A DNA stretch of 64,000 nt from Candidatus Latescibacterota bacterium (GTDB lineage: Bacteria > Latescibacterota > CBDEFO01), in the NCBI GenBank assembly GCA_965248755.1, contig OZ252149.1, positions 4,252,314-4,316,313 on the forward strand, read 5' to 3'. A model generated the notes under the pieces. That model was not told the DNA's origin and ran no database searches. It was given only the letters and a program-made list of their open reading frames with translations. A program made the translations under genes and the position numbers. The first letter of the stretch is position 1, and every line of letters starts with the position of its first letter. Below are positions 11,246 to 63,610 of this stretch, one piece after another.

Positions 11246-12605
11246 CAAGTAGCAGCATCTCTTCCCGAAAAGAAGTCAGGTTACTTTGTGTTCTTCGCGC
11301 CTTGACGCTATATCCTGTTCAACCTGGCGCGGTAGCAATGCCCACAGCGCCCGTGAGACCTGCATGACTTAGATACGTTTCGGATAACCTCAGTATAACC
11401 GAAAGCCGATCAAAAGCCTCCAGACCTGATGCGTATTGTCCTCTTTGGGCCCTGCTCCCTTTTCAAATCTGCGAGAGAACTTGTACACTTTCCCCTGAAG
11501 ATGGAGGTAAAACCTGTCACCTTCCTTGCGGCGTTTTATGTCGACTCCGATGTAATCTAATCCTTCCTCCATCCTGTCTATGCCCTCGTCTCCCGAAAAA
11601 GGCACAAGTGCCTCAGCCCTTTCACGGTCGTATTCAAAACCCACCCTAATGTCATTCCAGATCTGATAAGTCGTCCTGAAGAAAGCGTCTCTTTCTTCAT
11701 TCCTGAAGCCCTGCTCTTCTGTGCCTCTCCCGACGTGGTGTCCTACAATCCAATCCCTGTAGATATAGGGGAAGTTGCCAGCGACATCCCCGCTGTGCGC
11801 ATACCAGCCGTTCGGCGCCGAGATCCCTCTCCTCAAAAACCTACTTTCGACGACCTGAAATAGCCTTGCTAACTCTATCCTCAGATCCGCCCTTCCGTCC
11901 CTAAATAGGTCTCCAAGGTACGCACCTATCAAATAAGCACTATTGCGGCCCCAAGGTATTACCCTCCTTGCAAACCCCGGGTACCACACATCGTCTCCGG
12001 CTGTTAAACCATAGAGCTTAACGTAATCGTATAGATATACACTCCCCCCCACCTCAGCGATGGCATTGCCTCTTATATCCCCTGCTGTCTGATTAAGAAT
12101 GCTCTCTATGGGGTTCTCCTTAATGACGCCCCCGACGCTTGCTCCTACAGCGATCTTGTTTAGACCGACATTCCCCATATCACATTCATGAGGGATTGTA
12201 TTTCGATACAATCTTGTTTGTGAATGAATATTACCACTTTTACATTTTTCAACAAGTATTTTTTTCAATTAATTATAGTATTTTCCTCTGAATTATCACT
12301 TTCTTTGTGTTTAAATCCTCCAAATCGGAGACACCTCTCCATCGACTCACAAAAAAATGTGGCAGTTTAAACAGAGTAATATCGCAATCGTTCAATCCGG
12401 GATAATATTTCGGTAAATAAGCTCTTGTCTATCCCAACCTCAGCCATCTGAAACGTGATGTATCTGCTGTGCCTGACAAGCTTCGCGCCAATCTTGATCA
12501 ATGTCACGAGGAGGCTGCCAAGAGACCCCGGGATAATATCAGTGTTTGATTCTCCCTGGAAGAACCAACCGCCTTAGCCCGATTAATTCATAAACTTGCT
12601 GGAGT

Positions 12606-12628
12606 TATTGCGAGGAGCAAAGCGGTCC
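12606..12628. repeat. palindromic element copy (TCCCCGATTGAGTCTATCGGGGA)
   Basis: 7-8 bp perfect stem with 7-nt loop; member of a dispersed family (see findings). Confidence 0.8.
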
Positions 12629-12714
12629 CCGATTGAGTCTATCGGGGAAGCAATCTCAAGGTTTTATAGTGGTCTCCTATGAGAGTCGGAGAGTATTACA
12701 TCTACCACAAGTAA

Positions 12715-12738
12715 CCCCCGATTAAATCTATCGGGGGG
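12715..12738. repeat. palindromic element copy (CCCCCGATTAAATCTATCGGGGGG)
   Basis: Same stem and loop architecture, 109 bp from the previous copy in direct orientation. Confidence 0.8.
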
Positions 12739-12933
12739 ATTGCTTCGCCTTCGGCTTGCAATGACACCGAAGGTGGTTAAACGGCATAACTATAATATAA
12801 TACAATCCCTTAATTAATACACGGACTTTTTTTGTGAATTATTCGCCTCAGAAAGTTTCCAAGATTATAGGCCAGAAGAAATAACCAGAGCCTCACCTGA
12901 TCCCTTTCTGAACCCACATAGCATTGATATCTG

Positions 12934-13317
12934 TCAGGTGATATCTGACAGGCTGTTGAGATTTTCCAACTGAGTCAGTATCTCCGTTTCAAAACGTCCT
13001 ATCGTGTTGGCGCTGGCGGCGTGCTTGCCTTTGCCCTTCTTTCCGGTAATCGCTCGCATTACTGGGTCAACTGGTAAAGGATGAGCATTATTCACAGCTT
13101 CATATCCTGCAAGACGACTGTAAATCGATTGACGCATCAGTGTGGGCATATCATGTTGGATATTAAGTCCTCTTCGTAGATCGTTAAAAAGACTAGATAC
13201 TGAGTCGAATAATCCTAAAACGTCATCGAGGTCACGATACGCAAGAAGACCACCATCAGATGTCACCTTGGCACGATCAAATTCAAGCTTAATAGTTCCA
13301 TCAAATCCCATATTCAT
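12934..13317 (-). pseudogene. IS1380-family transposase, N-terminal fragment
   Basis: 127-aa ORF LEFDRAKVTSDGGLLAYRDLDDVLGL...YSRLAGYEAVNNA matches the conserved N-terminus of IS4/IS1380-type DDE transposases; the catalytic core is missing. Confidence 0.6.
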
Positions 13318-18504: not shown

Positions 18505-18957
18505 CTACGTCAAAACACAAGCATTATCCACATAAAAAAATGTGGAGAGGGAGGGATGTTTGATTGGCCATGCGATCACTGGCCCGCTGCACCAGAGAGT
18601 TAAGGGTCTGTCGAGATTTTCGGCGATCTCCAAAGGTTCTGGGGCAGAGGGAATCTTGAAGAGTTGGCAATACTCCTTGAGGAGGTCCACAACAATAACA
18701 TCAAGGGCTGTCGCTAATCTTCTCAGTGTCCTAATGGAAAAACTGCTGTCGGATTTCTCCCACTTCGTGATAACAGTCCTGTGAACGCCGACCTTCACCG
18801 CTAACTGATACTGTTTCAGCCCGCGCTCCTTGCGAATGTTTCTGAGGTTTTCTCCTACCGTCAAACTTGTCTTCTTTGCTAACGTATGGCTGTTCTGACA
18901 GGATGTCGGATACGTAAATAAAAAGGTAATGCAGTAGAAAACTTGCACCTGGTACAT
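18505..18957 (-). CDS. XRE-family helix-turn-helix transcriptional regulator
   Basis: HTH segment LRNIRKERGLKQYQLAVKVGVHRTVITKWEKS; start uncertain (ORF track extends to 18993). Confidence 0.6.
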   Translation of the reverse strand: MYQVQVFYCITFLFTYPTSCQNSHTLAKKTSLTVGENLRNIRKERGLKQYQLAVKVGVHRTVITKWEKSDSSFSIRTLRRLATALDVIVVDLLKEYCQLFKIPSAPEPLEIAENLDRPLTLWCSGPVIAWPIKHPSLSTFFYVDNACVLT

Positions 18958-18991
18958 TGACAATTTGTTGATCTGTAGCGATATTTGGGAC

Positions 18992-19776
18992 ATGAAAAAT
19001 TGCCCTCGCTGCAGGGGAAGAAAATTTTGGTTACTGAAGACTGGTCAGTTACGCTGTCGGAGGTGTAAATTGACTAGAAAGTTGACCTCCTCCTCCTGGG
19101 AGAAAACTCGAATGTCTCCGTACTGGAAGGGGAGGTTGGTTGAGTATTTTTGTCTTGGTGTTCCTGTTTACCGGTTGCGATTCCATGTTCCATACACGAG
19201 GAAGACTATGGAGCGCTGGTATCGGATCATTCGAAAGGAAATCTACCACCTCACCTTCAAGGAGCTTGAACTCCTTGAAGGTGAGGTGGAAATGGACGAA
19301 ACTCTCTTTGGTGGTAGAAGGCCTGGTAAGAGGGATTGGGGTGCTTTGGGCAAACAGATGGTCTTTGGGATCTATCAGAGAAAGGGTAAGGTGTTGACGT
19401 TTCCTATCTCGTCAAGGAGTCGTGACTCACTGTTGCCTCTTATTACCCAACACATCAAACCAGGGAGCTTATATTACACTGATGATTGGATAGCCTATGC
19501 CTCCCTTTCTATCAGTGGCAACCACGTGGTAGTGCCGAAAGAGAAGGGAATAGCTAGAGGAAGAGATCACCTTAATGGCGTGGAAGGTTTCTGGTCGTAT
19601 GCCAAACACTGGCTTTACCAGCGATCCCCGATTGATTCTATCGGGGAGGTGTTGACAAAAACTCCTTCCACCTTTACCTTAAGGAGATCGAGTGGTGCTT
19701 CAACCATCGCCACGAAAATCTCCTTCCACTTATAAGAAAGCTACTCGATCAACAAGCTGTCAAAGAGCTAAATTAG
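18992..19776 (+). pseudogene. IS1595-family transposase interrupted by a palindromic element
   Basis: N-terminal zinc ribbon CPRCRG...CRRC and DDE core with HLNGVEGFWSYAKHWLYQ; the family-typical C-terminus (KNSFHLYLKEIEWCFNHRHENLLPLIRKLL) is encoded in a different frame immediately after the palindrome at 19626-19648. Confidence 0.7.
19626..19648. repeat. palindromic element copy (TCCCCGATTGATTCTATCGGGGA) inside the IS1595 transposase gene
   Basis: Same family as 12606; sits exactly at the frame break. Confidence 0.8.
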
Positions 19777-19971
19777 TGCAACTTTAGTTATGCATTACCA
19801 ATAAAAATAACATATTTCTAGCGGCATTGGCAACTATTTTCTTGCACATGTAGAGATAATTTGTCATCTTGTGTGCCCAATATAGATTTTTTATTGCTTT
19901 TAACTCTAAAAAAGCTTATATTTTGACGTTGATTATCATCTGCCGATTTAACCTTAAAAGAGGCGTCCGTA

Positions 19972-23499: not shown

Positions 23500-25143
23500 A
23501 TGAAGAAGATCACACCTTTCCATATATTAGCGATCGTTCTTACAGTATTCTTCTGCGCCGTAAGATACATTAGATGGCAGGAGCCTATGGGACTTGACCA
23601 GGGTCTCTTTGCCTACTTCGGAAGACACATCCTCACCGGCAGTGTCCCCTACTTAGACATCTGGGACAGCAAACCTCCCGCTATATTCTATATATACTCC
23701 ATCAGCTTTGCTCTACTGGGGGACTCCTTTTTCAGCGTCTTTCTTAGCGAAACCCTATTCTTGGCTCTCACGGCCCTCTTGATCTATCTTCTGTGCGCAG
23801 AAGTTTTCGATAAGACAGTCGCCCTATTTGCCGCGGCCATCTACGTTCTCTTTTCCAACGCTTCTATATTCGACGGATTCTGGTCCACAGCACAGGCTGA
23901 GGTCTTCATGAACTTGCCCATAGTCGCAAGCTTCTACATCCTCACCAAGAACTTAAGGAGATGGCACTTTTTCGCCTCTGGGGTTCTTCTCGGACTGTCA
24001 GCGATGTTCAAACTTACCGCCCTATTCCTGCTACCCTCTTTTATCCTGTATCTCTACCTATCCTGCAAAGAGAGATCCCCGATTGAAGCTACCGGGGATG
24101 GGATTCACAGGTACACATATTTCGGCATCGGACTTATCATCCCCCTGTCAATCTGCGCCTTCTACTTCTGGATGCAGGGAGCCCTGGACGATATGATTTA
24201 CACACTTGTCTCTTACAGCTACCGGTACTCGCAAGCCATAAACCAGGGACATCCTTTTCTCAAGACTTCCCTTGGACAGGTCATAAGGTTTGTCTATTTC
24301 AACCCCACAGTATCCATTTTATCCCTCGTCGGACTTATATATCTCCTTGTAAAAAGACGTTCTAAAGAAACGTATCTTTTAATATCCTATCTTGTGCTAT
24401 CCTTTATTTCGGTCTGTGCGCAAAGACAGTTTGCAGGGTACCACTTCATCGTGCTCTCTCCTCCGCTTGCCGTTATCTGCGGCAGTGCATGCCCCGTTAT
24501 ATTCAACTGGATAGTCCAAGTCGTGCGACCACTCCGTAGTGCAAGGACGATCCTCCGCAAAAGATCCTCAAAGCCTCTGCTCAGGTCATCGGCAGCTATT
24601 ATGACAGTTGTATTATTAGCCTCCCTTCTTTACGCGGACATTTCCCGTTATTATCGGTACTACAAACCCGACATCGCCTATGCTCTTGGAAAGATCCCCG
24701 AAAGACAATATCTAAAGACCTTTGACAGGGGGGCAATATCCTTTCTGAATAACAACTCTGTAGCTGACTATATAAAAAATAGGACCGATAGTGACGACTA
24801 TGTCTTGGTATGGGGATTAGCTCCTGCTATATATTATCTGTCAGACAGAAAATCTCCCACAAAATACGTCTTCCACCACGTTCTGTTGACCGACGCTCCG
24901 CTGTCCCTCACTCTTGGCGGACTTGAAGAAAGGAGGAGGGAATTCATAGATAAAGTAAGTGAAAGCAAGCCCCGTTACATCGTCATAGGCATCAACGACA
25001 GGAACGGCTTTGAGCCGCAGGACTCCTACACTCAGCTTCTCAATTTCAAAGAGCTCAAGGACTATGTCTTTACAAACTACGATAGAGAGAAAAGAATCGG
25101 GAATTTCATCCTTATGAGGAGAAAAGACCAGAAAGTACTTTAA
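23500..25143 (+). CDS. polytopic membrane glycosyltransferase-like protein (GT39/GT83, ArnT/PMT-like)
   Basis: Start moved to the ATG after the terminator; multiple TM helices; family assignment tentative; contains an in-frame palindromic element at 24076-24098. Confidence 0.5.
   Translation: MKKITPFHILAIVLTVFFCAVRYIRWQEPMGLDQGLFAYFGRHILTGSVPYLDIWDSKPPAIFYIYSISFALLGDSFFSVFLSETLFLALTALLIYLLCAEVFDKTVALFAAAIYVLFSNASIFDGFWSTAQAEVFMNLPIVASFYILTKNLRRWHFFASGVLLGLSAMFKLTALFLLPSFILYLYLSCKERSPIEATGDGIHRYTYFGIGLIIPLSICAFYFWMQGALDDMIYTLVSYSYRYSQAINQGHPFLKTSLGQVIRFVYFNPTVSILSLVGLIYLLVKRRSKETYLLISYLVLSFISVCAQRQFAGYHFIVLSPPLAVICGSACPVIFNWIVQVVRPLRSARTILRKRSSKPLLRSSAAIMTVVLLASLLYADISRYYRYYKPDIAYALGKIPERQYLKTFDRGAISFLNNNSVADYIKNRTDSDDYVLVWGLAPAIYYLSDRKSPTKYVFHHVLLTDAPLSLTLGGLEERRREFIDKVSESKPRYIVIGINDRNGFEPQDSYTQLLNFKELKDYVFTNYDREKRIGNFILMRRKDQKVL
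24076..24098. repeat. palindromic element copy (TCCCCGATTGAAGCTACCGGGGA) inside a coding sequence
   Basis: 19 of 21 identity to the family consensus; 6-bp stem; read-through in frame as RSPIEATGDG. Confidence 0.6.
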
Positions 25144-27570: not shown

Positions 27571-28530
27571 TTATGTTCGCTGGTCAGCCGTGTAGACATC
27601 TACTGTCTCCACAGGGCGGAATTTTCTCTTAAACTGTCTTAAGCCAGCACTTCCCAAATCGCTCGCATCGTTTACAAGCTCGAACTTTCTCATTTCACTA
27701 AAGAAACAATATCTCGTATATTCTGATAGTCCTTTTATGTCCAGATCACCTTTGGAGACGAAGAAATTAGCCATCTCCTCCCACATCCTTCCCCCCATCC
27801 AGAATCCCCTTATCTTCCCATCTATCTCGGCAACCCACCCGGAAAGATCTGGAACTTTTGCATAATACTCTAAAGCGGATCTCGTATAAGCCCAGTCCAA
27901 GAGCCTCAGTGAACGTCCCTCTCTCCCATGTCTTTTAGCCTTTCTCCATGCACGCATAATTTCCATGCACCCGTCCACATCTTCTTTCCCCATCTTTCTA
28001 CATAGGACTTTATAATCCTTTTCAGTCCGACGTATTCTCTTCCTCAGGTCACTGTAAGCGCTCCCTTCCATCTGCACAATCTTCTTTGGGTCATATATAT
28101 ACTCCGCCTCCTTCCACCTGAGATAGCAGACGCCCATCTTATCCATCGCCACTTTGTCACACCTGTCCACCCACAAGATTCTCCCCTCTTTATCTTCGTT
28201 AAAAGAGTTCATCAACTCTGTGCACTGCACAAGAGCACTATCTGAAAAGGGCAGGGGAGGGAAAAACATATTCATCCTGACGCCCTCAGGTCTGTGATTT
28301 ACCACAAAGACACAGAGACACCCACTTATCTTCATCCAGAATATGTCTCTTGAGGGGGAGGCCCCGTAGCAGAAGATAAACGGAAAGTAGTAACACCAGG
28401 TCTTCTTTCGATTCTCGCTAAATGTCTCTCTGAACAGATCCGCATCCTCAAGCGTCAGGCGCTTTAAGTGTGTCTCAAAGAGGGCTATTTTACTATCTGC
28501 AGTAAGAAGGGCACTATCCGCGCTCTGCAT
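27571..28530 (-). CDS. DUF2156-like (MprF C-terminal domain-like) acyltransferase-fold protein
   Basis: 319 aa; C-terminal GLRQFKRKFRP motif and overall layout recall the aminoacyl-phosphatidylglycerol synthase C-terminal domain; overlaps speH by 17 nt. Confidence 0.45.
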   Translation of the reverse strand: MQSADSALLTADSKIALFETHLKRLTLEDADLFRETFSENRKKTWCYYFPFIFCYGASPSRDIFWMKISGCLCVFVVNHRPEGVRMNMFFPPLPFSDSALVQCTELMNSFNEDKEGRILWVDRCDKVAMDKMGVCYLRWKEAEYIYDPKKIVQMEGSAYSDLRKRIRRTEKDYKVLCRKMGKEDVDGCMEIMRAWRKAKRHGREGRSLRLLDWAYTRSALEYYAKVPDLSGWVAEIDGKIRGFWMGGRMWEEMANFFVSKGDLDIKGLSEYTRYCFFSEMRKFELVNDASDLGSAGLRQFKRKFRPVETVDVYTADQRT

Positions 28531-28903
28531 CGAACAACCTCGTCCTTGAAGGCTTCAGCACCTTCTTCAGATGATCTACAATTACCGAACTGTCCATCCC
28601 ACCTGGTGGCTTGCTGCCGCCCCTGAAAGAATCATTCGGGGACTGTTCGTCCCTCCCGTCACAGGTCAGAATATCCACAGCCATAAATCCCTCCTCAGCC
28701 CAGGTGTGGACGCTCACGTGCGACTCGGAGATCATGACAAATCCGCTGAATCCGTAAGGCTCGAACTGATGAAAGTGATGGTGCACGATCCTGGCACCTG
28801 AAAGCTTCACAGCCTCTATCAATACGCTCTTGACAGGCTCTACCTGCTTCAAGAGGTCTATGTTATCAAACCACATATCCAAAAGGATGTGGCTCCTTGT
28901 CAT
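28514..28903 (-). CDS. speH: S-adenosylmethionine decarboxylase proenzyme (small bacterial/archaeal type)
   Basis: 129 aa; processing-site motif in FVMISESHVSVHTWAEEG. Confidence 0.8.
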   Translation of the reverse strand: MTRSHILLDMWFDNIDLLKQVEPVKSVLIEAVKLSGARIVHHHFHQFEPYGFSGFVMISESHVSVHTWAEEGFMAVDILTCDGRDEQSPNDSFRGGSKPPGGMDSSVIVDHLKKVLKPSRTRLFDAERG

Positions 28904-34076: not shown

Positions 34077-34099
34077 TCCCCGATAGATTCAATCCGGGA
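34077..34099. repeat. palindromic element copy, inverted orientation (TCCCCGATAGATTCAATCCGGGA)
   Basis: Reverse complement matches the family consensus with one mismatch; intergenic. Confidence 0.7.
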
Positions 34100-58019: not shown

Positions 58020-59365
58020 GGGTCTGTCAGTTTTTTTGTGTAAATGGGATTTTCTTCTGTACCCTTTTCGGCTTATTCTATACCAAATCTCCCCTCGAAG
58101 TGGATGGAGAATTGGTGAATGGCCAAGCTCCAGTTCCTGATCGGCATCGTCCATTTTTTCTTGATATTCTTGAGTGTCATATAGAGTAACTTAATCGCTG
58201 TCTCGTCGTTTGGGAAGCTATTTCTGTTCTTTATTACTTTCCGTAGAGAGTTATTAAGCGATTCGATGGCGTTTGTGGTATAGATCACCCTTCGGATCTC
58301 TTCAGAGTAGGCGAAAAACGGGATGATCCGAGACCAGTTATTCTGCCACGATTTACTTATCATCGGATAACGGCTGTCCCAAGCCTCCTGAAAATCTCCA
58401 AGGGCCTCTTCAGCCTGTTCTACCGTGGGGGCTCGGTATATATTCTTGAGGTCGGCGGCAATCTTCTTACGATCCCTATACGACACGAACTTCAAGGAAT
58501 TCCTCACCACATGGACAATACAGAGCTGGACCTCTGCTTGGGGAAATACGGATTCAATAGCCTCTGGAAGACCCTGGAGACCATCCACGCAAGCTATCAA
58601 CACATCGTTCATCCCCCGATTCTTAAGCTCCGTGAAAACTTGCAGCCAGAACTTCGCCCCCTCGCTCTTTGCAATCCAGATACCCAAAACGTCTTTCATC
58701 CCATCCAGACCGACCCCTACCGCAAGATACACCGCCTTGTTTACGATCCGGCCTTCGTCTCTAATCTTCATCACCAGAGAATCAAAGAATACTATGGGAT
58801 ACACCCCTTCCAAAGGACGATCCTGCCACTGCTTCACCTCTGATATGATCCCATCGGTCACAGTCGATATCAAATCAGGGGCACCTCTACACCGTATATC
58901 TCCTCCAAATGAGCCTGTATATCACGTGTGGTCATCCCTCGGGCATACATAGACAGTATCTTATCATCAAAACCTGTAAATCGCCTCTGCCCCTTCCTCA
59001 CTATCTGCGGATCAAACTGACTGTTCCGATCCCGTGGCACCGATATCTCCAGATCACCATAATCTGTCTTCAATCCCTTTGTGCTCCTACCGTTGCGCGA
59101 ATTACCGCTGTTCCTCCCTTCTGGAGAACTCTTATCGTAGCCTAACTCATACGTAAGCTCTGACTCCAGAGCCCGCTCAAGAATCGCCTTCGTCAACTGC
59201 TTCAAAAGACCTTCCTAACCAATTATGTCTTCCGGCTTCTTGTAATCCTTCAAAAGCTCATCAATCAACTTCGGGTCTAGCTTGTCCATGTAAGAACTCC
59301 TTATGTAAATGGTGGACAACTAATATAACTCATTTCCCCATTTACACAAATTTCCTTACACACCC
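58020..59365 (-). mobile_element. IS256-family insertion sequence, copy 1 (inactivated), flanked by 8-bp TSD TCTATATC
   Basis: Termini GGGTCTGTCAGTTTTTTTGTGTAAATGGG / CCCCATTTACACAAATTTCCTTACACACCC form imperfect IRs; identical 8-mers at 58012-58019 and 59366-59373. Confidence 0.85.
58073..59319 (-). pseudogene. IS256-family transposase, inactivated (1-nt deletion plus nonsense codon)
   Basis: Split into ORFs 58073..58873 and 58870..59205; relative to copy 2 lacks one A near 58878 and has GAG to TAG near 59203; also a Q to R substitution. Confidence 0.85.
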
Positions 59366-61534: not shown

Positions 61535-61819
61535 GTGGATCGAGATGCTCTCTTCGACTTTACTTGCTCTGGCTGTGGCCAGACATCCTTCTGGAGTTGG
61601 GATTGTCGGCAATTCAGGATTAGGGATCTGTCAGTTTTTGAATTTAAGGCCTACCTGATCATAGATAAATATCGCACCAATTGTCCAATCTGCGGGGTGA
61701 AGATTGAAGGACTTGACTTTGTTGATTCTTATTACCGATGCACTGCCGAACAATGGATTAAGGTAGGCAAATATGCTCTGAACTGGGTCCGGCTATCATG
61801 CCAGCGTCCCCGATTGTGA
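61535..61819 (+). pseudogene. ISL3-family transposase, N-terminal fragment
   Basis: CSGCG...RIRDLSVFEFKAYLIIDKYRTNCPICG matches the zf-ISL3 N-terminal pattern; ORF stops at the palindromic element. Confidence 0.5.
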
Positions 61820-61852
61820 TCCCCTATTGAATCTATAGGGGAGCGGGGATCA
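61807..61852. repeat. compound palindromic element (TCCCCGATTG + TGATCCCCTATTGAATCTATAGGGGAGCGGGGATCA)
   Basis: Contains the family loop TGAATCT in a nested hairpin; sits between the ISL3 and IS1380 fragments. Confidence 0.7.
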
Positions 61853-61853
61853 G

Positions 61854-62096
61854 GTGAGGCTCTGGTTATTTGTTCTGGCCAATAATCTTGGAAACTTTCT
61901 GAGGCGGTTGGTTCTTCCAGGGATAATCAAATACCGCTCTCTTGGCAGCCTCCTTGTGAAATTGATCAAGATTGGCGCGCAGATTGTCAGGCACAGCAGA
62001 TACATCACGTTTCAGATGGTTGAGGTTGGGATAGACATGAGGTTATTTGCCGAAATATTATCCCGGATTGAACGATTGCGATGTTACTCTGTTTAG
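61854..62096 (+). pseudogene. IS1380-family transposase, C-terminal fragment
   Basis: LANNLGNFLRRLVLPGIIKYRSLGSLLVKLIKIGAQIVRHSRYITFQMVEV matches the conserved C-terminus; near-identical DNA to 12368-12560 on the opposite strand. Confidence 0.6.
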
Positions 62097-62263
62097 AAGC
62101 CTTGTGAAATAGTTATCTTGTAGGCAGCGTCTGAAACGTCTATTATGGGTCAAACAGTAGCATATCGTATCGTTTTGCTATGGAATAAGCAAAATAGTCT
62201 CATCAGAGTTCTGGTCAGCAAGGAATAGAAGCTGTTTGAAGAACAGGATGCACTGTCTTTGAA

Positions 62264-63610
62264 GGGTCTGTCAGTTTTTTTGTGTAAATGGGATTTTCTT
62301 CTGTACCCTTTTCGGCTTATTCTATACCAAATCTCCCCTCGAAGTGGATGGAGAATTGGTGAATGGCCAAGCTCCAGTTCCTGATCGGCATCGTCCATTT
62401 TTTCTTGATATTCTTGAGTGTCATATAGAGTAACTTAATCGCTGTCTCGTCGTTTGGGAAGCTATTTCTGTTCTTTATTACTTTCCGTAGAGAGTTATTA
62501 AGCGATTCGATGGCGTTTGTGGTATAGATCACCCTTCGGATCTCTTCAGAGTAGGCGAAAAACGGGATGATCCGAGACCAGTTATTCTGCCACGATTTAC
62601 TTATCATCGGATAACGGCTGTCCCAAGCCTCCTGAAAATCTCCAAGGGCCTCTTCAGCCTGTTCTACCGTGGGGGCTCGGTATATATTCTTGAGGTCGGC
62701 GGCAATCTTCTTACGATCCCTATACGACACGAACTTCAAGGAATTCCTCACCACATGGACAATACAGAGCTGGACCTCTGCTTGGGGAAATACGGATTCA
62801 ATAGCCTCTGGAAGACCCTGGAGACCATCCACGCAAGCTATCAACACATCGTTCATCCCCTGATTCTTAAGCTCCGTGAAAACTTGCAGCCAGAACTTCG
62901 CCCCCTCGCTCTTTGCAATCCAGATACCCAAAACGTCTTTCATCCCATCCAGACCGACCCCTACCGCAAGATACACCGCCTTGTTTACGATCCGGCCTTC
63001 GTCTCTAATCTTCATCACCAGAGAATCAAAGAATACTATGGGATACACCCCTTCCAAAGGACGATCCTGCCACTGCTTCACCTCTGATATGATCCCATCG
63101 GTCACAGTCGATATCAAATCAGGGGACACCTCTACACCGTATATCTCCTCCAAATGAGCCTGTATATCACGTGTGGTCATCCCTCGGGCATACATAGACA
63201 GTATCTTATCATCAAAACCTGTAAATCGCCTCTGCCCCTTCCTCACTATCTGCGGATCAAACTGACTGTTCCGATCCCGTGGCACCGATATCTCCAGATC
63301 ACCATAATCTGTCTTCAATCCCTTTGTGCTCCTACCGTTGCGCGAATTACCGCTGTTCCTCCCTTCTGGAGAACTCTTATCGTAGCCTAACTCATACGTA
63401 AGCTCTGACTCCAGAGCCCGCTCAAGAATCGCCTTCGTCAACTGCTTCAAAAGACCTTCCTCACCAATTATGTCTTCCGGCTTCTTGTAGTCCTTCAAAA
63501 GCTCATCAATCAACTTCGGGTCTAGCTTGTCCATGTAAGAACTCCTTATGTAAATGGTGGCCAACTAATATAACTCATTTCCCCATTTACACAAATTTCC
63601 TTACACACCC
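62264..63610 (-). mobile_element. IS256-family insertion sequence, copy 2 (intact transposase), no TSD
   Basis: Same termini as copy 1; flanks TCTTTGAA and ACGAAATC differ. Confidence 0.85.
62317..63564 (-). CDS. IS256-family (mutator-type) transposase
   Basis: 415 aa uninterrupted; typical IS256 sequence features. Confidence 0.9.
   Translation of the reverse strand: MATIYIRSSYMDKLDPKLIDELLKDYKKPEDIIGEEGLLKQLTKAILERALESELTYELGYDKSSPEGRNSGNSRNGRSTKGLKTDYGDLEISVPRDRNSQFDPQIVRKGQRRFTGFDDKILSMYARGMTTRDIQAHLEEIYGVEVSPDLISTVTDGIISEVKQWQDRPLEGVYPIVFFDSLVMKIRDEGRIVNKAVYLAVGVGLDGMKDVLGIWIAKSEGAKFWLQVFTELKNQGMNDVLIACVDGLQGLPEAIESVFPQAEVQLCIVHVVRNSLKFVSYRDRKKIAADLKNIYRAPTVEQAEEALGDFQEAWDSRYPMISKSWQNNWSRIIPFFAYSEEIRRVIYTTNAIESLNNSLRKVIKNRNSFPNDETAIKLLYMTLKNIKKKWTMPIRNWSLAIHQFSIHFEGRFGIE

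Follow-up and report, generated by a model that had tools for sequence, protein, structure and literature searches.

The stretch analysed here, a 64,000-nt window on contig OZ252149.1 of a Candidatus Latescibacterota bacterium (GCA_965248755.1, positions 4,252,314 to 4,316,313), carries a decayed copy of a 23-nt hairpin repeat at 24076..24098 (+ strand), inside an intact gene for a GT39-like membrane glycosyltransferase (GT; 23500..25143, +), where it is read in frame as SPIEATG(D). On sequence comparison, this copy is an insertion relative to the GT orthologues, and the repeat to which it belongs appears from its distribution among filled and empty sites to be mobile. We propose, with a probability of roughly 0.85, that the GT copy is the relic of a very small selfish hairpin that entered the gene in frame in an ancestor, was tolerated and is decaying, and that its family integrates at 4-nt staggered breaks. 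The GT copy itself is most probably old, tolerated, decaying and without function at its site, with probably no consequence for the GT gene; the wider family is of more interest than this single copy.

The copy reads TCCCCGAT TGAAGCT ACCGGGGA (full sequence TCCCCGATTGAAGCTACCGGGGA), and the reading frame runs across it as ...SCKE-R-S-P-I-E-A-T-G-D-G-IHRY... (K-E-R-S-P-I-E-A-T-G-D-G). The initial annotation had described an in-frame hairpin at this position of a membrane-protein gene, read as RSPIEATGDG, which translation confirmed, but its length of 21 bp has to be corrected to 23 bp. The copy matches three other sites of the window (12626, 19625 and 34077) at 20 of 23 positions, as compared to 0.00 expected from 100 shuffles, and scores 27.9 bits with a position-weight matrix (PWM) of the family, on which no shuffle got to 14. 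Its decay is visible in the stem, with seven of the eight pairs left, and in one change of the loop (TGAAGCT versus the consensus TGAATCT); the predicted energy of the DNA hairpin is −5.1 kcal/mol versus −7.2 kcal/mol for the family consensus.

The host open reading frame (ORF; 23374/23500-25143, +, with the ATG at 23500 as the likely start) encodes a 547-aa PMT_2/GT39-like protein of GT-C type. It matches Pfam PMT_2 (PF13231) with 56.4 bits (cut-off 26.1, E = 5e-15), which makes the earlier label of GT39-like membrane protein a fair one. The protein aligns over its full length with 26 homologues and retains the invariant residues, the dN/dS ratio against the relative on contig L001 (collected loci and contigs are numbered L001, L004 and so on) is 0.32, and an AlphaFold model built from 27 sequences reaches a mean predicted local distance difference test score (pLDDT) of 90.5, being helical from residue 6 to ~395. 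From these four observations, the GT gene looks functional and under purifying selection. In the model, residues 193-200 lie where the chain turns from helix 172-191 into helix 194-225 and the confidence falls (block 191-200 averages a pLDDT of 67), and hydropathy places the insert between the hydrophobic segments 157-190 and 205-226. The hairpin peptide is thus located in a loop between two predicted transmembrane helices, for whose membrane side the helix count in the model and the positive-inside rule give opposite answers.

A search with the GT protein returned one identical entry, one close relative (P0002, encoded on ENA contig L001; 89% amino-acid identity over aligned positions), which is the only one available, and otherwise proteins of at most 47% identity. 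No SPIE-like peptide is present in any of 25 orthologues with 28-47% identity. Counted from K171 to G211, which are invariant and served as anchors, the window protein has 41 residues and P0002 has 47, versus a median of 34 in the 25 other homologues (most at 27-38, with two outliers at 43 and 55), so that the loop is ~7 aa longer in the window protein. The comparison with orthologues thus bears out the suggestion, made in the initial annotation, that the peptide had been inserted. The segment 24073..24099 (+), which encodes R S P I E A T G D in nine codons, would approximately represent the extra residues, a span estimated from the difference in loop length and from the canonical 27-bp in-frame product of the family described below.

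The age of the insertion can be bounded from contig L001, which, like the Latescibacterota metagenome-assembled genome (MAG) CBDEFO01, is ~92-97% identical to the window over syntenic stretches, an identity that marks the window genome as closely related to this MAG. At the matching codon, L001 reads AAA TCCCCGATTGAA [CCCCCAATAGATTCAATTGGGGG] TCGGGAT AGG, in which the outer left arm is shared with the window, the right arm is shortened by a loss of 5 nt, and a second hairpin is nested inside. This nested copy is perfect, lies in the opposite orientation and has a compensated stem (CCCCCAAT/ATTGGGGG); the second hit added a net 18 nt and preserved the frame. As the outer hairpin is shared at the same codon, the first insertion is older than the split of the window genome and the L001 relative, and the nested copy indicates that the GT site was hit twice. 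We also considered that the resemblance might be coincidental or ancestral, the peptide being native loop sequence, as could be imagined from the variable loop length of the homologues (27-55 residues). This is effectively refuted by the match to the other sites and the PWM score, neither of which is approached in shuffled sequence, by the lack of the peptide in all 25 distant orthologues, and by the sister genome, in which the outer arms are kept at the same codon and enclose a perfect second copy.

We then characterized the family as a whole. Copies in the window were found by a looser stem/loop scan followed by the PWM, a procedure that gave no match in 20 shuffles; there are seven of them (12626+, 12715+, 19625+, 24076+, 28620−, 34077− and 61820+). 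A first set of 155 copies was collected and later enlarged to 337 copies in 1.53 Mb of sequence. Counting per position defines the unit as a purine at −1 followed by [T/C]CCCCGAT TGAATCT ATCGGGG[A/G], i.e. an 8-bp G+C-rich stem closed by a conserved 7-nt loop, TGAATCT. It is sharply bounded at 23 nt, with no conservation in the 40 nt on each side. Searching for CCCCNATTGANTCTATNGGGG in one genome per species gave at least 76 loci; among those listed, most come from MAG CBDEFO01 and the rest from several ‘Deltaproteobacteria’/Thermodesulfobacteriota MAGs and one Nanoarchaeia contig. A metagenome scan added at least 120 contigs with the motif, by name mostly from groundwater and sediment, and no copy was observed in the viral contigs scanned. 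An Rfam gathering scan of the window gave only a tRNA-Arg and nothing at the hairpins, and the 23-nt motif was not met in the literature searched. The family is apparently undescribed, and it is unusually small.

The stem varies in a compensated manner. In the first set, 84 copies are closed by T-A, 54 by C-G and 10 by T-G, and the stem pair 6/18 is G-C in 134, A-T in 10 and T-A in 6. On 85 distinct variants, taken from copies pre-selected for at most one stem mismatch, both-sided changes occur at six of the eight pairs (61 cells versus 14.5 expected, not reached in any of 500 shuffles), and double changes exceed unpaired cells at the variable stem positions. We also observed that T-G closing pairs outnumber C-A ones, 10 to 2 in the first set and 3 to 0 in the metagenome set, a hint that the fold of the strand carrying the TGAATCT loop matters, as RNA or as single-stranded DNA.

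A highly conserved loop, a covarying stem, this possible constraint on one strand and, at the GT site, the position at a helix-helix turn are all features that a selected cis-element would display, be it a protein-bound RNA or DNA structure, a translational pause for membrane insertion or a recombination site. We nevertheless find such a role for the GT hairpin very improbable: the copy has lost one stem pair and altered its loop, the sister genome has broken the outer hairpin through the nested copy and the 5-nt loss, no Rfam match was found, and other copies lie in dead insertion sequences (ISs), transposable elements of the miniature inverted-repeat kind (MITEs), linkers and many unrelated genes, with all four open frames and both orientations represented. 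On the reading that we favour, the DNA hairpin would have no role at the GT site and would be eroding there by point mutation.

To document mobility, the flanks of each copy were compared with all the sequence collected, which yielded pairs of filled and empty sites in ISs, in a MITE and in near-identical metagenome contigs. Two main classes of junction emerged. In the first, the filled site is longer by 27 bp, made up of the 23-mer and of 4 bp of target that are duplicated in direct orientation, as confirmed by empty sites for L011/L092 (TAAA) and for L021 versus an IS of the window (TCAA); in a variant of this class, the 4 nt CCTG/CAGG stand at one side (L090, L134, L018). In the second, with a net gain of 19 or 20 bp, the 23-mer, alone or with an added purine, stands in place of 4 nt of the target, which are usually NCGA. 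At least nine such events were found, including both MITE sites and the IS1595 site of the window, L013/L056, L017/L013, L101/L103, L103/L088 and L181/L193. For the last pair, in which the flanks are ~100% identical, enumerating the possible break points led us to reject the model in which the +20 class arises from one clean insertion of 20 nt. Of the 207 copies with unique flanks, 13 are bordered by exact direct repeats of 4 nt, versus 1.25 expected and at most six in any of 500 permutations, and none by repeats of 5 nt; inverted flanks of 4 nt are also in excess (11 versus 2.3 expected). Hairpins are located inside ISs, a MITE and other hairpins, the nested or adjacent copies being those of the L001 GT gene, L039, L018, L022 and L181.

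An excess of duplications of exactly 4 nt is the trace that a staggered cut by an enzyme leaves. We therefore propose that the family would spread by integration at a target break with a 4-nt stagger. Filling in the overhangs would give 23 + 4 = 27 bp, a product that is neutral for the reading frame and can survive in genes, whereas loss of the 4 nt would give 19-20 additional bp, causing a frameshift that would last only where the DNA is dispensable, as in ISs, in MITEs and between genes. The +20 class was indeed met in ISs, MITEs and spacers. Because 27 bp amount to nine codons, the duplication class provides a simple reason for a sizeable minority of copies surviving in genes. Only 27 of the 155 copies of the first set (17%) lie within long ORFs, as compared to 64% for random positions, showing that the repeat is depleted from genes and yet far from excluded. 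For the GT gene, the copy would have entered a stretch encoding a short inter-helix turn, in the common ancestor with the close relative, adding ~8-9 loop residues (RSPIEATGD) that would have been tolerated; with the frame kept and no stop codon in that frame of the hairpin, it would simply be translated.

Copying without any dedicated enzyme, by template switching during replication or by break repair at short homologies, offers another explanation of the junctions. The empty sites are usually (A/T)CGA, which matches the TC...GA ends of the hairpin and the CGA internal to its arm; NCGA or NCGG stands at the empty site in 8 of ~10 events of the +19/+20 class; the net gain varies between junctions (+18 to +27); copies often lie in or beside other copies; and the sequence searched yielded no cognate transposase. 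Such a process would not account for the sharp excess of duplications of exactly 4 nt, none being of 5 nt, in unrelated sequences (TAAA, TCAA, CAAG, TATA, TAGA...), nor for unit boundaries that are sharp at 23 nt, and we consider it unlikely.

Besides the GT gene, several genes contain translated copies, for which the initial annotation had suggested looking. The second in-frame coding copy of the window, also decayed, reads G TCCCCGAA TGATTCT TTCAGGGG at 28620..28643 (−), within the AdoMetDC gene (28514-28903, −; 129 aa, PF02675), where it is translated as SPNDSFRG. It scores 28.1 with the PWM, is identical in the relative L001, and belongs to a loop that exceeds the one of Thermotoga maritima AdoMetDC (PDB 1tlu) by ~17 residues. 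In related genomes, FabF (L009) has two copies, one of which is a 9-residue insert relative to PDB 3o04, flanked by a CAAG duplication and thus of the 27-bp type; further coding copies are found in ProA (L035), in a RelA/SpoT enzyme of a deltaproteobacterial MAG, in large surface proteins (between domains), in an HlyD-type protein and in an FGE-sulfatase. All four stop-free frames of the unit are used by coding copies, in both orientations, giving peptides such as SPI[E/D]SIG, PDRFNRG and PRLNLSG.

Several points weigh against the history that we propose. The available sequences include no GT gene with an empty site, the next relative being only 47% identical, so that neither the original junction nor the exact number of bases gained (21, 24 or 27 bp) nor a duplication of the target is visible; the present flanks of the GT copy show no 4-nt repeat. 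Neutrality of the GT insert is an assumption. The ProA peptide adds only ~2 residues relative to PDB 4ghk, so not every coding copy is a clean insertion. The covariation count carries the pre-selection of its copies mentioned above. Junctions are of several kinds (+18, +19, +20 and +27, together with swaps of 9 or 14 nt), which is also compatible with models based on repair or template switching, and no mobilising enzyme was found in the 1.5 Mb of sequence searched.

The swaps concern a larger multicopy repeat (TTGGGGAAACTG GCAAGTTGA CTGCCAGACGAGG ...) of metagenome and deltaproteobacterial contigs, in which the hairpin takes the place of a 9-nt or of an adjacent 14-nt module, differing by copy (L030, L038, L048, L089, L110, L115, L122, L133, L141, L163 and others); the pattern resembles an exchange of cassettes more than a simple insertion. 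Other arrangements of copies were also recorded. In L022 (3908-4137 and 6874-7112) and L072 (5053-5250), hairpins of the same orientation recur every ~90-115 bp as parts of a longer unit that is arrayed in tandem, and exactly CCTG/CAGG often separates one copy from the next. In L064 (3991), in the window (61810-61852) and in L074 (4040-4090), a longer palindrome has the hairpin at its centre (CCCGATCCCCGC [hairpin] GCGGGGATCGGG), and the two make up a nested composite.

Candidate enzymes were sought by tblastn against the 1.5 Mb of sequence, with approximate queries for IS608 TnpA and for the transposase associated with repetitive extragenic palindromic (REP) elements, RAYT. Two sets of RAYT-like genes were obtained. 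The gene in L007 (5899-6466) was rejected as the cognate enzyme, since it is apparently a frameshifted pseudogene lying between inverted copies of its own, different palindrome, GGGGAGGGGCTTGTCCCCTCCC; it has the look of a separate REP/RAYT system within a deltaproteobacterial MAG that also bears the 23-nt hairpin. The gene in L101/L117 was rejected because the nearest hairpin is 4.7 kb away. ORFs located between inverted hairpin pairs (0.9-2.3 kb apart) all turned out to be ordinary metabolic genes.

These results bear on whether the hairpin is a classical REP, which a RAYT (a Y1 transposase of the HUH type, related to those of IS200/IS605) would move as a single-stranded hairpin. The two share several traits: REPs and intragenic REPs are imperfect palindromes of 20-40 bp with a high copy number, mainly extragenic, with compensatory stem variation, and a minority of them lie entirely within ORFs of known proteins and are translated, sometimes twice per gene. 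Di Nocera et al (2013; PMC3733652) documented intragenic REPs with GTAG or CGTC tags in several species, Opitutus terrae and R. conorii among them. By contrast, the 23-nt family has a conserved 7-nt loop and no such tag, no more than 4 of the 155 copies having GTAG, CTAC, CGTC or GACG at a distance of up to 8 nt from one of their ends. Unlike the head-to-head dimers of REPIN/BIME doublets, it occurs mostly as single units or as direct neighbours (19 direct versus 6 inverted among copies less than 300 bp apart). It also shows 4-bp target duplications, which are not expected from HUH transposition, and the approximate queries revealed no RAYT flanked by the hairpin in the 1.5 Mb. We thus regard membership of the REP/RAYT system as improbable.

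How repeats of ~20 bp move is a question raised both by the cyanobacterial small dispersed repeats (SDRs) and by REPs that are untagged or carry CGTC. We know of no transposase for such REPs and of no mobilising enzyme for the SDRs of Nostocaceae, which Elhai and colleagues are said to have described, as very small mobile repeated elements, nesting in one another. PMC4390886, PMC5861425 and PMC2884548 present them as mobile repeats of ~20 bp with a defined target, SDR5 lying inside HIP1 (GCG|ATCGC), and PMC5861425 reports no SDR-like repeats outside Nostocaceae. As far as these secondary citations go, the 23-nt family most resembles the SDRs in size and behaviour, both consisting of units of ~21-27 nt apparently inserted in otherwise conserved sequence, other repeats included. 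It differs in that the sequence family and the phyla (Latescibacterota, ‘Deltaproteobacteria’) are unrelated, in its 4-bp duplication class, and in its many translated copies in housekeeping genes.

Palindromic elements of Rickettsia (RPEs) and MITEs provide two further comparisons. RPE-1 elements are 100-150 bp long and add 30-50 residues, and MITEs measure 70-300 bp or more, with inverted repeats of 15-30 bp around an internal segment. Like the RPEs, the hairpins are palindromic selfish DNA found in frame in functional ORFs, with a tolerated peptide (GT, AdoMetDC, FabF, RelA/SpoT), but they comprise 23 bp and 8-9 residues, unlike RPE-1, and belong to free-living Latescibacterota and ‘Deltaproteobacteria’. 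Like MITEs, they are non-autonomous, have terminal inverted repeats and show target duplications at some copies, in their case of 4 bp, two of which are confirmed by empty sites while the second class replaces 4 nt instead; unlike MITEs, they have only 8 + 7 + 8 nt, nothing conserved outside the 23 nt, and flanks that are not TA/CTAG. The parallel with Rickettsia drawn in the initial annotation holds insofar as RPEs, according to a secondary citation in PMC3733652, are palindromic DNA lying in frame in protein genes; such insertions are however not confined to that genus, being found in Opitutus terrae and others (PMC3733652). Translated palindromes in genes are thus already known, from RPEs and intragenic REPs, and what is apparently new is the 23-nt family.

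A more far-reaching proposal, to which we give somewhat less than even odds, is that these undescribed 23-bp hairpins are among the smallest mobile units and would be moved by a putative enzyme making 4-nt staggered cuts, the 27-bp product, open in four of six frames, colonising housekeeping genes (FabF, RelA/SpoT, AdoMetDC, GT-C) in at least two phyla and serving as a recurrent source of loops. Whatever the enzyme, the family offers unusually clean material on the movement of ~20-bp repeats, with its sharp 23-nt unit, two junction classes and copies nested in copies, to which filled and empty alleles in near-identical environmental contigs add; its presence across several phylum-level groups makes phylogenetic profiling for an enzyme possible. 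It also illustrates that essential enzymes and membrane proteins can acquire loops of 8-9 residues from selfish DNA and survive this, which is of relevance for protein evolution, and it affects gene annotation, as the hairpin peptides SPIESIGD, PDRFNRG and PRLNLSG recur in unrelated proteins.

The remaining hairpins of the window lie in an IS, in a MITE and between genes. The one at 19625..19647 (+) is inserted in the transposase gene of an 875-bp IS1595-family element (18925..19799, +), which has an 8-bp target duplication, AATAAAAA, and is absent at the syntenic L001 site. ORF 18965-19735 translates through this hairpin as RSPIDSIGEV, as previously noted, but the copy is no in-frame parallel of the GT one: the Pfam transposase match ends at the hairpin (profile position 130 of 153), the conserved C-terminus (GVDKNSFHLYLKEIEWCFNHR...) resumes in another frame, and a paralogous IS in L021 lacks the hairpin at this site, with a 20-nt difference. 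The break in the profile, the change of frame and the net gain of 20 nt identify it as a frameshifting insertion in dispensable DNA, here a dead transposase gene. The L021 paralogue itself bears three other hairpin insertions and a stop codon.

Two copies reside in an IS630-like MITE of ~270 bp (12577..12847, +) with terminal inverted repeats GCCCGATTAATTCA... and TA/CTAG flanks, present in at least 14 copies among the CBDEFO01 loci collected. The hairpin at site 1 (12626..12648, +) is missing from 2 of 14 MITE copies, and the one at site 2 (12715..12737, +) is present in 4 of 14. The MITE terminus resembles the hairpin arm plus loop at 11 of 13 positions. As a parent of the hairpin, this MITE was set aside and kept as a lead only, since the sequence collected contains no full-length element with those ends and the hairpin flanks are not TA. 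IS1380-like (DDE_Tnp_1_4) fragments beside hairpins, at 12934-13317 of the window and 3801-4043 of L074, were likewise discarded, being truncated with uninformative ends. Two copies are intergenic, one at 34077..34099 (−), between divergent genes for an aminotransferase and an AIR-synthase-related protein, and one at 61820..61842 (+), which has a compensatory stem change (TCCCCTAT...ATAGGGGA) and is common to the relative L004.

The window also contains two IS256/Mutator-family elements (PF00872), at 58020-59363 and 62093-63564. The former is split into two ORFs, absent from L004 and flanked by the repeat CCTCTATATC; a 170-bp end, 62093-62262, is found again in at least 13 loci of the relative. 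Finally, ~2.7 kb of L001 (6527-9029), between the GT gene and a 227-aa ORF, are missing from the window; this islet, which encodes a 179-aa ORF, a DndB-domain protein and a D12-class methyltransferase, is variable and defence-like and adjoins the GT gene.

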